Origin: Candidatus Zixiibacteriota bacterium
GTDB lineage: Bacteria > Zixibacteria > MSB-5A5 > UBA10806
Assembly (NCBI GenBank): GCA_020348065.1
Contig: CP070742.1
Span: 2,696,094 to 2,760,093 of the forward strand
Length of the DNA: 64,000 nucleotides
Direction: 5' to 3'
The notes beneath the pieces are model-generated. The model made no database searches and was not told the origin of the DNA. It saw only the letters and a program-made list of their open reading frames with translations. Positions 30,673-51,944 of the stretch are shown piece after piece. Position 1 is the stretch's first letter. The number at the start of each line of letters is the position of its first letter. The translations under genes were made by a program, and so were the position numbers.

Positions 30673-31182
30673 TTAAAACGGTATATGACCTTTGCCGAGT
30701 TCCTTCTTTTTATCCTTGATTTCTATCTCAAGATTCAGATCGATTTCCGAAGATATCGATGGCATTTCCGCCAGTCCCGTTATCGAAATGTTCTCTTCCG
30801 TCGGCACCCAGCTTATTTTGAAAGGGATCTTTTTCTGGAATCCGATAACAGCCCTGAATGAGGGAATCAGCTCTTCCGATATGAATTTCTTTTGGGTGAC
30901 CTGGTATACGACTACGGCGCTATCGGATAATATTTCGAACCGGATACCCTTAAAGCTTTTTTTATTCGTATCAATAAATCGAAGAAGAGCCAGCAAACCG
31001 GCATACTGGCATTCGAATAAGGTTCCGCTGAATCTGCTTCGATAAACTAAACCCAAATCCGGAATGGCGAATCCAGCCAGCCCCGTGGATTTCGTCATTT
31101 TTTCCTTAGAAAAATTCTGCCCGAAAAAATAACATCTGAGATTTTCTTCAAATTCGAATTCCTGACTCACGCTTTTTCTCAA
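30673..31182 (-). CDS. Hypothetical protein with a weak RNase-H-like pattern (unverified)
   Basis: 169 aa with no signal peptide. A weak E...D pattern (FECQYAGLLALL ... ILSDSAVV) is reminiscent of the RNase H fold, but the first acidic residue is not evident. I treat it as unknown. Confidence 0.3.
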   Translation of the reverse strand: MRKSVSQEFEFEENLRCYFFGQNFSKEKMTKSTGLAGFAIPDLGLVYRSRFSGTLFECQYAGLLALLRFIDTNKKSFKGIRFEILSDSAVVVYQVTQKKFISEELIPSFRAVIGFQKKIPFKISWVPTEENISITGLAEMPSISSEIDLNLEIEIKDKKKELGKGHIPF

Positions 31183-31373: not shown

Positions 31374-31838
31374 TTATACCTCCCCGTCCCCGCCGCAGAT
31401 CCGGCAATCGACCAGTTTTTTCGAATTTGTATGCTCTCCTGCCGCCAGAAGACACTCCGGGCATGATGTCAACCTCACCTTGGCCCCGAACATCTGGCCG
31501 TGTGTCTTATCGTAAGGCGAACCGGCGGCGCAGACCCCGGTGGCGTCACAATGTTCGCAGGGAATTCCCTGTTTTTTCGGTTTTTCGGGTTCTTTCTCAA
31601 TAACCGGTTTTGGTTGCGGTTCAGGTTTGGGTTCAATTTTTTCTTTTTTCTTTACCGCCTTTTTTATGGCTTTCTTTTTAGCGACTTTCTTCTTGGCCGC
31701 CTTTTTTACCGCTGATTTTTTTACGGTCTTTTTGGCGGGAGCTTTTTTGCTTACTTTCTTCTTGGCTGCCGTTTTTTTCTTCGCCGCCTTTTTACCGGAT
31801 ACTTTTTTCTTTGCCGGCATGGTCTCTCCTATTCTCAA
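31374..31838 (-). CDS. Histone-H1-like lysine-rich protein with a Pro-rich linker and a C-terminal Cys-rich zinc-ribbon-like domain
   Basis: 154 aa. The N-terminal roughly 60 aa are (KKAAKKKV)n. Then comes PKPEPQPKP, then 8 Cys arranged as CxxC...C...CxxC...CxxCGGDG (one DnaJ-like CxxCxGxG motif). Confidence 0.5.
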   Translation of the reverse strand: MRIGETMPAKKKVSGKKAAKKKTAAKKKVSKKAPAKKTVKKSAVKKAAKKKVAKKKAIKKAVKKKEKIEPKPEPQPKPVIEKEPEKPKKQGIPCEHCDATGVCAAGSPYDKTHGQMFGAKVRLTSCPECLLAAGEHTNSKKLVDCRICGGDGEV

Positions 31839-32049
31839 TCATGCTTCTATTTTTCCAAAAAATAACGCTCACCCGGATTCCGCATCCGCCAAAACATCAA
31901 TCATCGAAAGAAAATCTACTTTATAATTGTAGCAGTATTCGGCCGTATCGGCAATAAATTTTTGGTTTCAAGGCCGGATATTAGATGCCGATACAATATA
32001 TAATAAGCGGCCGAAATCTTTGGGGCCGTTTTGATCAGGAGGGCATAAG

Positions 32050-32850
32050 ATGAATAGATTTATAGTATTATTTTTAATATTGTTTTCAGCTTCGCTGCAC
32101 GCCAGAAATCATTATACCGGATATTCGGGGGCGCCGGGCTCGAACGGCACTTGCACAAACTCGTGCCACGGGCAGTACGGTTTCCCTCCAACGGTTACTA
32201 TCACCGGTTTTCCCGATCAGTATGTGCCGGGCCAATCTTATTTGATCAGGATAAGTCACCGCGGCGGCAGCGCTATCAATCAGTTCAATGCCTCGATCCG
32301 ACTGGGATTAACGGAAGAAAACGCCGGGGAGATTATAGCCGGTCCAAATACAGAAATTTATAATACTCCCGGAGAGACAAATGGCGTTCATTGGGCCGAC
32401 GCAAATTCCAACTCAGGCATATTTACCTGGATTGCGCCCAATCCCGGAGTTGGCGAGATAAGACTATATTGGGCCGGATTGCAGGGAAGCCGCGTATACG
32501 GCACCGACGTCCAATTCGTGGAGGTCTCGGAAGACGTTACCGCGGGTGTAGAATACATGCCCGGATCGCCGGGGGAGTTTTCTCTGGAGCAAAATTATCC
32601 CAATCCCTTTAACAACAGAACCAACGTGGAATTCACCATAGCCAAAACGGGGCCGGTCGAATTTATAATAACCAATATCCTGGGGCAAGTACTATACTCC
32701 TGGATCGACGACTACGCTCAACCGGGAACGGTTACCGTTCACTGGGATGGTTTCGACATGAACCGCAGGATGCAGCCGTCGGGCGTATACTTCTATCGAT
32801 TGAAAACGCCCGAAATTACACTTACGAATAAAATGATGATTTTGCGATAA
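32050..32850 (+). CDS. Small T9SS-sorted secreted protein, hypothetical
   Basis: 266 aa with a signal peptide. The C-terminal T9SS type-A domain is LEQNYPNPFN...GVYFYRL. It is one of only three plus-strand genes. Confidence 0.65.
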   Translation: MNRFIVLFLILFSASLHARNHYTGYSGAPGSNGTCTNSCHGQYGFPPTVTITGFPDQYVPGQSYLIRISHRGGSAINQFNASIRLGLTEENAGEIIAGPNTEIYNTPGETNGVHWADANSNSGIFTWIAPNPGVGEIRLYWAGLQGSRVYGTDVQFVEVSEDVTAGVEYMPGSPGEFSLEQNYPNPFNNRTNVEFTIAKTGPVEFIITNILGQVLYSWIDDYAQPGTVTVHWDGFDMNRRMQPSGVYFYRLKTPEITLTNKMMILR

Positions 32851-35689: not shown

Positions 35690-37396
35690 CTACCTTCTGC
35701 CGGTTCTTTTTGTGGTTTTCTTAGCCGCTTTTCTCGCGACTTTCTTCACCGCCTTCTTCTTAACGACCTTTTTGGCGGCCTTCTTCTTTACCGCTTTCTT
35801 CTTTGCCGTGTTCTTTTTCGCGGCATTCTTTTTGGTCGCCTTTTTCGTAGAGTTTTTAGGCGGTTTTGAGCTCAATGCGTCTTTAATAGCCCTGGTCGCA
35901 TCGGCAGCGAGTTTGGTTAAGGTTTTTTCAAAATCCTCCGCCGCTTTTCGTACTTTGGGGCCATATTGTTCGGTCGCTTTTCTTGCGACCTTTTCGACTG
36001 TATCCGAAGCCTCTTTCGCCCTCGGACCCAAAACCGTAGCCGTATCCGAAGCCACTCTCTCGATCGTTTTCTGCGCGGATTGCGCCACCGCTTTCAAAGC
36101 CATGGTATCAACAATTTGCGGTTTACCTATGGTTTTTAGTTCTTTTGCGTACTTACGAGGATCGGCTATCACACCCTCAATCGCTGTCGCCGCAATAACC
36201 GCCGGCGATCCGAGGTATATCTCCGCGTTAGGATTTCCCATCCTGCCATGAAAATTCCTGTTCATGGTGGTGAGGCTAATCTCACCATCGGCTGGAATGC
36301 CGCCGTGAATCCCAACACAGGGTCCGCAGCCGGGCGGAACCATTACGGCGCCGAACTCTACCAGCGTTTTATAGTACCCCAGGTCCATGACCTCCTTCAT
36401 CACCTCAACGGAGCCCGGGATGGCTATAAACCGCATTCCCGGAGCGATTTTTTTCCCTTTAACGATTTTCGCCACGACTTCCCAGTCTTCTGTCCTGGAA
36501 TTCGTACAGGTTCCCAAAAATACCTGGTCGATTTTTATTCCGGCGGCTTCGTCAATTGTATAAGTATTATCGACGGTATGAGGGTAACTGACCGTGGGAG
36601 CCAATGTCGAAACGTCGATTTCAATAACGCGTTCGTATTCCGCGTCGCTATCCGCTTTAAGCGGTATCCATTTGTCTCCCCTGCCCCGCGATTCCAGATA
36701 TTTTTTCGTGGTCTCGTCCGACGCTATCAATCCCGCTTTTGCGCCGGCCTCCACCGCCATGTTGGACAAAGTAAACCGCGAAGACATATCCATCTCTTCG
36801 ATCGTCGGTCCGCAGAATTCGAGAGATTTATAAGTTGCCCCATCCGCTCCGATTGTGCCGATCAGATGAAGAATCAGGTCCTTGGGAAATACGCCGAGAG
36901 GGAATGTCCCGGTGACATATACTTTAAAGGATTCCGGAACCCTGAACCAGCTTTTTCCATAAGCCGCTCCGATGGCGACATCCGTGGAACCCATTCCGGT
37001 CGAAAAGCAGCCCAGCGCGCCCCCGGTGCAGGTGTGGCTGTCGGCTCCTATTAATATTTGACCCGGCACAACATAATCCTCATTGATTACCACATGACAA
37101 ATCCCTTTGCCGACTTCCGAAAGCTGAGCCCCGGTTTTTCTGCAAAAATCCCTGATGAATTTATGGTCATTGGAGAGTTCTTTACGGGATGAGGGCGCCG
37201 AGTGATCCAGGAAAAATACGACCCTGTCGGGATTCGCCAATTTGTCCACCCCCAGTTTCTCAAGCTGCCTGATGGCCAGAGGACCGGTTCCGTCCTGAAA
37301 GAGGCAAAGATCTACGTGTGCGATTGCTATCTCTCCGGCAGAAACGTCATGTCCCGCGTGAGAACCAAGGATTTTTTCAGCAAGAGTCTTGCCCAT
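35690..37396 (-). CDS. leuC: Aconitase-family hydratase large subunit (LeuC type) with a C-terminal amphipathic-helical extension of about 150 aa that ends in a lysine-rich histone-H1-like tail
   Basis: 568 aa. The core has the Fe-S ligand context GADSHTCTGGALG ... GTCTNSR ... GCGPCVG. After residue 420 or so comes a helical low-complexity region. The final 55 aa are KKATKKNAAKKNTAKKKAVKKKAAKK... Confidence 0.8.
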   Translation of the reverse strand: MGKTLAEKILGSHAGHDVSAGEIAIAHVDLCLFQDGTGPLAIRQLEKLGVDKLANPDRVVFFLDHSAPSSRKELSNDHKFIRDFCRKTGAQLSEVGKGICHVVINEDYVVPGQILIGADSHTCTGGALGCFSTGMGSTDVAIGAAYGKSWFRVPESFKVYVTGTFPLGVFPKDLILHLIGTIGADGATYKSLEFCGPTIEEMDMSSRFTLSNMAVEAGAKAGLIASDETTKKYLESRGRGDKWIPLKADSDAEYERVIEIDVSTLAPTVSYPHTVDNTYTIDEAAGIKIDQVFLGTCTNSRTEDWEVVAKIVKGKKIAPGMRFIAIPGSVEVMKEVMDLGYYKTLVEFGAVMVPPGCGPCVGIHGGIPADGEISLTTMNRNFHGRMGNPNAEIYLGSPAVIAATAIEGVIADPRKYAKELKTIGKPQIVDTMALKAVAQSAQKTIERVASDTATVLGPRAKEASDTVEKVARKATEQYGPKVRKAAEDFEKTLTKLAADATRAIKDALSSKPPKNSTKKATKKNAAKKNTAKKKAVKKKAAKKVVKKKAVKKVARKAAKKTTKRTGRR

Positions 37397-47824: not shown

Positions 47825-49183
47825 TTACTTTTTGCCCGTCTTTTTTCTTTTTTTCTTCGGCTTTCCGAACAGGTCCTTCAATATGTCTGCGACGCCGGGA
47901 TAACCGATCTCCTGCAGATCGTATTTAACCCTGACGGCGGGCTTGTTTATTTTTATTATTTTGGCCAGATCTATCGGCGTACCGATAATGACCGAATCGC
48001 ATTTTGTGGCGTTAATTGTTTTTTCCAGGTCTTTGATCTGTTTCGCTCCATATCCCATAGCGGGAAGCAACGTGCCGATCCGGGGGTATTTCTGATAGGT
48101 GGCGGTGATTGAGGCCACGGTATAGGGACGCGGATCGACCAGCTCGGCCGCTCCGTATTTTTGCGCCGCTACGACCCCGGCGCCGTAGGTCATTTCGCCG
48201 TGAGTCAGGGTGGGGCCGTCTTCCACGACCAGCACTTTCTTGTTCTTTATCAAATCGGGTTTATCCACAGCGATGGGCGAGGCGGCCTCGATAATGATGG
48301 CCCCCGGGTTCAGTATCCTGACCGATTCTCTCACCGTCTGAATACCTTCAATTGGCGCGGTGGCGACCTTGTTGATAACGATTACATCCGCCAACAACAC
48401 GTTGGTCTCGCCGGGATAATAGGTCCGTTCATGGCCCGGTCTGTGAGGATCGACTACCGTTATATAAAGATCGGGCTGATAGAATGACATATCGTTATTG
48501 CCGCCATCCCAGACTACAACATCGGATTCGGCCGCGGCTTTTTCCAGTATAATTCCGTAATCAACTCCAGCGTACACCACCTGCCCCCTCATGATATGAG
48601 GCTCATACTCCTCGCGTTCTTCGATTGTGCATTTATGTTTATCGAGATCGCTCGGCTTTTCGAATCGCTGCCATATCTGTTTGGTGAGATCTCCATAGGG
48701 CATGGGGTGGCGAACCACTGCCGCTTTAAGTCCCATCTCTTTCAAAACTCCGCATACTTTACGGGTCGTTTGAGATTTTCCGGAACCGGTTCTCACGGCG
48801 CAGATAGATATTACCGGCTTGCCGCATTTCAACATGGTGGGAATTCCCCCGACCAGAGTAAAATTAGCGCCGCAGGCGTTTACAACGGCGGCCTTAGACA
48901 TCACATAGTTGTACGAAACGTCGGAATACGAAAAAACGACCTCATCTATCTTATGTTTGGCAATCAGCATGGCCAGCTTATTTTCAGCGTGTATCGGAAT
49001 ACCGTCAGGGTAAAGTTTACCGGCAAGCCTGGCGGGATATTTCCGTCCCTCGATATCGGGAATCTGCGTGGCGGTAAAAGCGACAACCTCATAATCCTTA
49101 TTATTTCTGTAAAGACAGTTAAAATTATGAAAGTCCCTTCCTGCCGCGCCCATTATCAGGATTTTTTTTCGTTTCATTAACAC
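47825..49183 (-). CDS. P-loop NTPase domain protein, cyclic-2,3-diphosphoglycerate-synthetase-like / DUF1611-like. The function is uncertain. It ends in a short Lys-rich tail.
   Basis: 452 aa. It has a Rossmann-like N-terminus (ILIMGAAGRDFHNFN), Walker A (AVRTGSGKSQTT), and the C-terminus GKPKKKRKKTGKK. The family assignment is from memory only. Confidence 0.35.
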   Translation of the reverse strand: MLMKRKKILIMGAAGRDFHNFNCLYRNNKDYEVVAFTATQIPDIEGRKYPARLAGKLYPDGIPIHAENKLAMLIAKHKIDEVVFSYSDVSYNYVMSKAAVVNACGANFTLVGGIPTMLKCGKPVISICAVRTGSGKSQTTRKVCGVLKEMGLKAAVVRHPMPYGDLTKQIWQRFEKPSDLDKHKCTIEEREEYEPHIMRGQVVYAGVDYGIILEKAAAESDVVVWDGGNNDMSFYQPDLYITVVDPHRPGHERTYYPGETNVLLADVIVINKVATAPIEGIQTVRESVRILNPGAIIIEAASPIAVDKPDLIKNKKVLVVEDGPTLTHGEMTYGAGVVAAQKYGAAELVDPRPYTVASITATYQKYPRIGTLLPAMGYGAKQIKDLEKTINATKCDSVIIGTPIDLAKIIKINKPAVRVKYDLQEIGYPGVADILKDLFGKPKKKRKKTGKK

Positions 49184-51482: not shown

Positions 51483-51944
51483 TTATTTATTTACATCGTC
51501 TCTTGAAATCGTGCTTGTGTCCTCAGGCTTTTCCCTGCCGAATAATTTTCTAAAAAACCGTTTCCTTTTGGCCCAACGCGCTTTTTTTTCAGCCCTGTAT
51601 TTTTTCTTCAGCTCTTTCTCTTTCTGGAATTGAACAGCATCGAGCTCCTCGATTTTCTGCAGAAGCCTCTCCACGTTATCCCGTTTTTCCATCATGCGCC
51701 GAAACGTATTGTATCTGGAAATATCCTTGAAAACAGCCTGCACAAACGGCTCCAGAAAAACCATGGCCTGGGAACCTAAATAATTTAACGGCTTGACGGT
51801 TTCCAGGGTAAGGATGGCGGGGACAGTAAATCCTTTCCTGACAATAAAATCGGCAAGCTTGAACAGCACCTCCTGTTCGTTCTTGCTTAACGTTTCCTCC
51901 TCGGGCGGAAGTTCGTAGCTTCCGAACGGCGATTTATGAGCCAT
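51483..51944 (-). CDS. Hypothetical protein with a basic C-terminus
   Basis: 153 aa. It overlaps the upstream ORF by 11 nt. I recognise no domain. Confidence 0.35.
   Translation of the reverse strand: MAHKSPFGSYELPPEEETLSKNEQEVLFKLADFIVRKGFTVPAILTLETVKPLNYLGSQAMVFLEPFVQAVFKDISRYNTFRRMMEKRDNVERLLQKIEELDAVQFQKEKELKKKYRAEKKARWAKRKRFFRKLFGREKPEDTSTISRDDVNK

Follow-up and report, generated by a model that had tools for sequence, protein, structure and literature searches.

The window analysed here is a 64-kb stretch of a Candidatus Zixiibacteriota contig, and the gene in question, on its minus strand (31374..31820), encodes a protein of 148 amino acids (aa) in which a lysine-rich tail and a proline-rich linker are followed by a cysteine-rich module of 61 residues. 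The alignments and profile comparisons indicate that this module is a new domain, which offers seven cysteines and one histidine as candidate metal ligands and is built with DnaJ-type knuckles. Our tentative reading, to which we would give slightly less than an even chance, is that of a cytoplasmic two-module protein of Zixibacteria, in which the tail would sit on a polyanion and the zinc module would contact a partner or form an oligomer.

The minus-strand open reading frame (ORF) 31374..31838 was confirmed to be present in the window. The initial annotation of this stretch counted 154 residues from a TTG codon, which falls within the Shine-Dalgarno sequence or immediately before it: an AGGAG at 31826-31830 is followed by a 5-nt spacer and by an ATG at 31820. 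Because the TTG overlies the ribosome-binding site and the ATG has the AGGAG with its spacer in front of it, the true start is almost certainly ATG 31820, and the length has to be corrected to 148 aa, with the N-terminus MPAKKK. This form is identical to GenBank UCE65596.1 ("hypothetical protein JSU85_12100", from a Candidatus Zixiibacteriota metagenome-assembled genome, 3.74-Mb contig), and the N-terminus MP[AV]KK is common to more than 45 homologues. The annotated ORF therefore corresponds to a deposited protein, and the gene is real and under purifying selection. The -35, extended -10 and Shine-Dalgarno elements are conserved family-wide, as an alignment of 13 orthologous intergenic regions shows. 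Between promoter and gene lies a leader of about 100 nt; a structured or known RNA leader was rejected, since no Rfam match and no unusual fold (fold z-score -0.52) were found in it. The features of the gene are as follows, with confidence values taken from the AlphaFold2 (AF2) model as predicted local distance difference test (pLDDT) scores.

31374..31820, minus strand: 148-aa coding sequence, running from ATG 31820-31818 to stop 31376-31374; its product is identical to UCE65596.1
31644..31820, minus strand: N-terminal polycationic tail rich in K, A, V and T, residues 1-59, predicted to be disordered (pLDDT <50 for residues 6-57)
31560..31643, minus strand: linker rich in Pro, Glu and Lys, residues 60-87, EKIEPKPEPQPKPVIEKEPEKPKKQGIP, delimited by the family alignment (pLDDT ~70-78)
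31377..31559, minus strand: Cys-rich module, residues 88-148 (61 residues), with ligand columns invariant in 50/50 sequences
31826..31830, minus strand: Shine-Dalgarno sequence AGGAG, kept in most orthologous loci
31926..31954, minus strand: sigma-70-type promoter TTGCCG-17 nt-TGcTACAAT, both hexamers conserved in the 13 orthologous intergenic regions

A profile search of a 5.8-billion-protein collection returned 50 family members with lengths of 39-132 aa (86-132 aa in 48 of them), and a phmmer search with the C-terminal 73 residues against 1.84 billion representative proteins returned nine convincing relatives (as 50%-identity clusters) together with one tail-less outlier of 62 aa. At the DNA level, 21 further genomic loci carry the gene; those with a name belong to Zixibacteria, apart from one labelled "Ignavibacteria", and a 22nd DNA match (L008) is an ordinary DnaJ of Gaiellaceae and not a member of the family. 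One member of another cluster is annotated as Zixibacteria bacterium 4484_95. The family is small and, as far as named records show, confined to Zixibacteria. No Pfam or NCBIfam model covers it, and the window domain had no match of use in either collection. Among the 50 members the only functional name is one label from the Joint Genome Institute (JGI), "DnaJ-class molecular chaperone", and the only Pfam domain is an HC2 (PF07382) match, precomputed for one member (P0027) and lying on the tail. Sequence searches of the PDB returned nothing with the domain alone and chance-level matches only with the family profile (E-values of at least 0.2), and literature searches on Zixibacteria with histone or lysine-rich proteins and on DnaJ-like zinc fingers in bacteria yielded nothing on this family. 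The window holds no second copy and no other CxxCxGxG protein.

The three-part anatomy proposed by the initial annotation was borne out, and the order of tail, variable Pro-rich spacer and domain of about 61 residues is kept in all full-length members. The cysteines of the domain had been counted as eight; the alignment of 50 sequences gives seven (C88, C91, C97, C120, C123, C139 and C142), and the eighth candidate ligand is the invariant H90 in C-x-H-C. All eight ligand positions and their spacing are invariant in 50/50 members, which is far beyond chance, so the conserved cysteine spacing on which the annotation had made its proposal depend is indeed present in the homologues. The domain follows the pattern C-x-H-C-x-[GA]-x-G-x-C ... 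PYDK ... LTSC-x2-C-L ... NSKKLV-x-C-x2-C-x-G-x-G. Apart from the ligands, G100, S119, L124, G144 and G146 are invariant columns of this alignment, and G93, G95, P102, Y103, D104, H108, L117, T118, G128, N132, K134, K135 and V137 are nearly so. The first motif of the window protein reads CEHCDATG, and the last one, CRICGGDG, is a perfect DnaJ-type CxxCxGxG knuckle, as the annotation had seen; both motifs are exact CxxCxGxG in most members.

Purifying selection on the domain is strong. In pairwise comparisons of the window with eight relatives, 14-32 synonymous and 3-18 non-synonymous differences per pair were counted in it, with ratios of non-synonymous to synonymous substitution rates (dN/dS) of 0.012-0.078; the ratio for tail and linker is 0.16 in one ungapped comparison. 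The seven cysteines and the histidine are predicted to form two tetrahedral zinc sites. Conservation extends to residues other than ligands, namely PYDK-x-H-x-Q-x-F, LTS and NSKKLV, and such a highly conserved non-ligand surface would agree less well with nucleic-acid binding than with a specific partner or with self-association. Two other interpretations of the sequence were rejected. A haem-c protein, suggested by a weak match to split-Soret cytochrome, would be expected to carry a CxxCH motif, which the domain does not have. A secreted, antimicrobial-peptide-like protein does not agree with the polybasic N-terminus without a hydrophobic signal segment, nor with the lack of a C-terminal domain of the type IX secretion system (T9SS); the CxxC knuckles fit zinc binding in the cytoplasm, and therefore this interpretation was abandoned.

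The charge of the protein is concentrated in front of the domain. Residues 1-87, that is tail and linker, contain 37 K+R against 6 D+E (net +31), and residues 1-59 alone have a net charge of about +30; that of the window domain is about -2. Across the loci the pre-domain region ranges from +5 to +32 and the domain only from -3 to +5. The domain is near-neutral and the pre-domain region strongly positive; therefore, affinity for polyanions would reside in the tail and not in the zinc module. The initial annotation wrote the tail as (KKAAKKKV)n, but Tandem Repeats Finder detected only short and weak repeats in its DNA, hence a strict tandem repeat was rejected and the tail is better described as a compositional bias. 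Tails of orthologues are between about 10 and about 80 residues long and differ in sequence, while the composition is retained and the MPAKK start is nearly invariant; the Pro-rich linker is variable in length as well. The profiles of H1-like proteins (PF07382, NF038052 and NF038053 were tested) match the window tail below threshold: HC2 scores 27.8 bits against a cut-off of 40 and hist_H1_lk_Burk 27.3 bits against 80, both driven by composition, and the third model 20.8 bits against 135. That the K/A-rich region may bind or compact DNA is suggested by its composition and its predicted disorder. In one locus (L011:71-601, protein P0002) the lysine tail is replaced by an unrelated, acidic and helical-looking N-terminus of about 80 residues, which joins exactly at the KKAVEKKEK/linker boundary and to which neither the window nor any other locus offers a match; the contig may have been assembled as a chimera in this low-complexity stretch, or the variant may be genuine.

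Among published proteins, the one closest in architecture is DdbA (SCO2075) of Streptomyces, in which an N-terminal histone H1-like domain is joined to a C-terminal DksA-like C4 zinc-finger domain; the H1-like region is of variable length and shifts DNA in gel assays, and the zinc-finger domain does not bind DNA (PMC3643593). The combination of a zinc finger with an H1-like tail, which the initial annotation had held to be uncommon in bacteria, thus has a published precedent in the same domain order. The two proteins have in common the order of parts, a lysine-rich H1-like N-terminus of variable length, a small C-terminal zinc module, small size and restriction to one lineage. DdbA differs in belonging to another phylum, in its coiled coil and in its zinc module, which is unrelated and has one C4 site, whereas seven cysteines and one histidine make two candidate sites here. 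The tail itself is like Chlamydia Hc1 and Hc2, the Burkholderia H1-like protein and Pseudomonas AlgP in its K/A-rich, low-complexity, disordered and polycationic composition; these proteins have no Cys-rich domain, and in the present protein the tail is N-terminal and begins with the conserved MPAKK.

In our two-module reading, the disordered lysine-rich tail would act like the C-terminal tail of histone H1 and stick electrostatically, without sequence preference, to a polyanion, most likely chromosomal DNA, with RNA or polyphosphate as alternatives. The proline-rich spacer would keep the zinc module off the polyanion surface, and the compact, near-neutral module, most likely holding two zinc ions through its seven cysteines and one histidine, would offer its conserved surface to a partner or to itself. 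The net effect would be a zinc-dependent protein-contact module tethered to the nucleoid or to another polyanion; if the zinc module oligomerises, the protein would, as a multivalent polycation, bridge or condense the polyanion. In this scheme we infer the zinc binding with its stoichiometry, the identity of the polyanion and the partner binding or oligomerisation. The roles put forward in the initial annotation, a nucleoid-associated protein or a polyanion-binding chaperone, are likewise putative.

The resemblance of the C-terminus to DnaJ, noted in the initial annotation, holds at the level of the CxxCxGxG knuckle only. The Pfam gathering threshold of PF00684 (DnaJ_CXXCXGXG) is 32.7 bits; the window domain has no match to this family at E-values up to 10, and 34 of 36 members match it below threshold with 13-23 bits, the best E-value (7e-5) being reached by the most divergent member, P0013. 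Many of the 36 also match Anti-TRAP and GRXCR1/2_C below threshold. Like the DnaJ cysteine-rich domain, the module carries CxxCxGxG knuckles at both ends and has eight candidate metal ligands, which suggests two zinc sites, and like BSD2 it stands alone without a J-domain. Unlike the DnaJ domain, with its four CxxCxGxG repeats, it has only two full repeats, motifs 1 and 4 (the first being CxxCxAxG in the window protein); motif 2 is replaced by a single cysteine (C97) together with H90, a bare CxxC stands at C120/C123, and a helix is predicted after C120xxC123. Against a profile of six DnaJ cysteine-rich domains, local hhalign gave a probability of 86% over one 10-column knuckle only, and a forced global alignment gave 74% with low per-column confidence, motifs 1, 3 and 4 being in register and a gap lying over motif 2. 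AF2 with the family alignment modelled the domain with one short helix starting at C120xxC123, and a Foldseek search of the PDB with this model placed BSD2 (6ekb, E-value 0.22, template-modelling score 0.43 normalised to the target), DnaJA2 and E. coli DnaJ (1exk, E-value 3.7) at or near the top. Possibly the module arose from the DnaJ cysteine-rich domain, with C97 and H90 taking the place of motif 2.

DnaJ-type zinc modules, such as those of BSD2, DnaJA2 and DnaJ, mediate protein-protein contact in known settings, and C-x-H-C resembles the CPHC and CGHC active sites of the oxidoreductases DsbA and PDI. One could argue that the protein, in the way of BSD2, LQY1 and CYO1, works on its own as a DnaJ-like zinc-finger chaperone or in redox chemistry: its zinc module would hold non-native clients or catalyse thiol-disulfide exchange, and its tail would only solubilise or localise it. 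The motif similarity of the 34 members, the hhalign probabilities, the ranking of the folds and the invariant histidine in C-x-H-C all speak for this explanation. However, every similarity score stays below its family threshold and the fold match is not significant, the conserved PYDK, LTS and NSKKLV surface suggests one specific partner rather than promiscuous clients, and nothing in the neighbourhood ties the gene to DnaK, GrpE or proteases except for FtsH, several genes off in one synteny group. We therefore consider a chaperone or redox role unlikely, although it is the alternative that survives best.

Another small zinc protein of DnaJ-type knuckles is Anti-TRAP of Bacillus (PF15777), which acts by protein-protein contact and oligomerisation. 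Its zinc site aligns with the C-terminal half of our domain (C120xxC ... C139xxCxGxG) with an hhalign probability of 25% over 30 columns, and weak matches to it occur in 23 of the 36 members (12.8-15 bits in the members examined, against 32 required). Unlike the present protein, Anti-TRAP has one Zn(Cys)4 site and no basic tail, and belongs to a different lineage. A relationship to DksA/TraR was rejected: hhalign against E. coli DksA gave a probability of 0.2%, the coiled coil of that family is lacking and its CxxC-x17-CxxC zinc finger is not recognisable in the sequence, and, of the 49 Pfam families matched at E-values up to 10, the 25 listed do not include PF01258.

Zinc-ribbon ribosomal proteins are small and very basic and carry CxxC knuckles, as the present protein does, so it could also be a ribosome- or RNA-associated zinc protein (an accessory ribosomal protein, an RNA chaperone or a hibernation factor) whose tail binds rRNA. 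The conserved strong promoter and Shine-Dalgarno sequence would agree with such a role, and tilS-hpt-ftsH follows closely downstream of the gene in one synteny group. Yet no ribosomal-protein family appears among the Pfam matches, even at E-values up to 10, and bL31, bL32, bL33, bL36 and uS14 are absent from the Pfam and NCBIfam results. In the neighbourhoods examined the gene is never part of a ribosomal-protein operon, and a roughly eightfold variation in tail length would be unusual for a stoichiometric component of the ribosome. Thus it is improbable that the protein belongs to the ribosome.

A similar composition of the tail raises the question of polyphosphate. Polyphosphate granules have AlgP associated with them and lose their normal, even spacing without its KPAA-repeat tail (PMC9239181). 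By analogy, the tail of our protein could bind polyphosphate and its zinc module could organise or link the granules. In three loci of one synteny group (L010:6455-8163, L025:3218-5366 and L027:5509-7285) genes for a PhoU-like protein and a PHO4-type phosphate transporter follow the gene directly, which is a weak hint at a link to phosphate or polyphosphate. However, this neighbourhood is confined to part of one subgroup, and no ppk, ppx or CHAD gene is adjacent in any locus examined, so that a granule protein of the AlgP type seems rather doubtful.

The surroundings of the gene fall into three synteny groups. In the group of the window, a gene for an RNase-H-like protein of 169 aa and then one for an S8 peptidase lie downstream; in the second group the gene starts 5-9 nt after a 3-hydroxyacyl-CoA dehydrogenase gene and stands before acetate kinase; in the third it precedes either the PhoU-like and PHO4 genes or tilS-hpt-ftsH. 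The 169-aa protein of the window (30673-31182, minus strand) shows a sub-threshold similarity to RNase HI/RVT_3 (NCBIfam E-value 6e-6, 26 bits against 140) and is kept only in the window's group (43-89% identity, 12 loci). The only neighbour that is conserved across the whole family is the divergent one:

32050..32850, plus strand: 266-aa secreted protein with a choice-of-anchor V domain (NF041895, E-value 1e-14) and a T9SS C-terminal sorting domain (TIGR04183, E-value 1e-10)

Its orthologues (266-270 aa, 44-89% identity to the window copy) are present in 20 of the 22 loci with enough upstream DNA, and the pairing persists while the zinc-finger gene falls to about 50% identity. All choice-of-anchor-V orthologues inspected keep the motif GTC-[TS]-x-S-C-H (CX3CH) about 35 residues from the N-terminus, which is reminiscent of a variant haem-c site. 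A role of the gene in a defence system was rejected, as neither it nor its two neighbours had a PADLOC match. The divergent pairing in itself, kept where other neighbours change, and the conserved blocks in the intergenic region might point to a local transcription factor for the choice-of-anchor-V/T9SS gene, with a zinc module that reads an operator and a tail that adds non-specific affinity. This is very unlikely: the blocks are fully explained by two back-to-back promoters (TATCGGC/CTTGA and TTGCCG/TACAAT) with no extra palindrome that stands out, for which reason a specific operator was rejected, the zinc domain is near-neutral or acidic, unlike a DNA-reading surface, and in one subgroup the 3-hydroxyacyl-CoA dehydrogenase gene lies between the two and is co-transcribed with the zinc-finger gene. 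The pairing may instead be an ancestral gene order held by the shared promoter region.

Tails of the (A/V/T)KK kind are found in 3 of about 58 ORFs of the window, and the other two belong to enzymes:

35690-37396, minus strand: LeuC-like (aconitase-family) dehydratase large subunit with a K-rich C-terminal tail of about 60 residues
42987-44063, minus strand: SucD (succinyl-CoA synthetase alpha) with a K-rich C-terminal tail

In all of the 120 closest SucD homologues (66-100% identity, 318-404 aa; the named ones from Zixibacteria) the catalytic core is followed by a K/R-rich tail, about 28-114 residues long with a median of 52% K+R, and the LeuC-like tail is also present in the relatives L003:79-1791 and L002:9-2027. 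The lysine tail is thus a module reused among these close relatives of SucD and across the lineage, and it is the zinc domain that sets the present protein apart. The initial annotation called the protein a free-standing counterpart of the tails on SucD and LeuC; this is right as to the kind of tail, but the defining conserved part is the zinc domain, and the tail may be as short as about 10 residues or as long as about 80. Shorter basic stretches, …GKPKKKRKKTGKK at the end and a K/R-rich segment KEKELKKKYRAEKKARWAKRKRFFR, are seen in two further minus-strand proteins of the window (47825-49183 and 51483-51944); they differ in composition from the (A/V/T)KK tails.

Several observations weigh against the two-module reading. 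The genomic context has no link to DNA transactions, as its sole universal neighbour is a secreted T9SS protein. The tails on SucD and LeuC argue that the target of the tail need not be DNA, and the short-tailed members, with a pre-domain charge of +5 to +8 (e.g. L018 and L009), would bind polyanions only weakly. On the side of the domain, the choice of zinc as the metal comes from the motif type only. Confidence in the structure model is no more than moderate (domain pLDDT 62-86), and AF2 on the domain alone gave a pLDDT of 49, worse than the full-length run, and was not used for the fold search. No Foldseek match to the model is significant (E-values 0.22-3.7).

A bolder idea would make the protein the hub of a Zixibacteria-wide "lysine-tail" system. 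Oligomers of the zinc module, each with many polycationic tails, would condense a compartment of DNA, RNA or polyphosphate, lysine-tailed SucD and the LeuC-like dehydratase would partition into it, and the module of seven cysteines and one histidine, with its C-x-H-C reminiscent of DsbA and PDI, would switch the compartment between assembly and dissolution in response to zinc or redox state. We regard this as a long shot.

The lysine tail also has a consequence for annotation. The antisense of the tail is an open Phe/Leu-rich frame (31540..31926 on the plus strand of the window), and in L001:113-1480 (minus strand) the JGI gene call ran the neighbour through the antisense of the tail and cut the true gene to its last 39 residues. 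For this reason a k-mer search with the window domain returned only this 39-aa fragment of a miscalled full-length orthologue. Phe/Leu-rich antisense frames of this type mislead gene callers and hide lysine-tailed genes in metagenome protein catalogues, where such genes are probably under-represented.

The architecture of an H1-like region joined to a zinc finger was known before, and so was the knuckle motif; what is new is the domain itself, an uncatalogued family, predicted to bind zinc, which has no relative above threshold in Pfam, NCBIfam or the PDB and is conserved across an uncultured phylum. The family is tied to a proteome-wide habit of Zixibacteria, which place long lysine-rich tails on unrelated proteins including core enzymes of the tricarboxylic acid cycle and of amino-acid metabolism, and this lysine-tailing of core enzymes across close relatives is more surprising than the zinc protein itself. 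Should one polyanion scaffold turn out to be the common target of the tails, bacteria would here have a simple and testable charge-based form of subcellular organisation, and the present protein would be the only dedicated non-enzymatic component of it seen so far.

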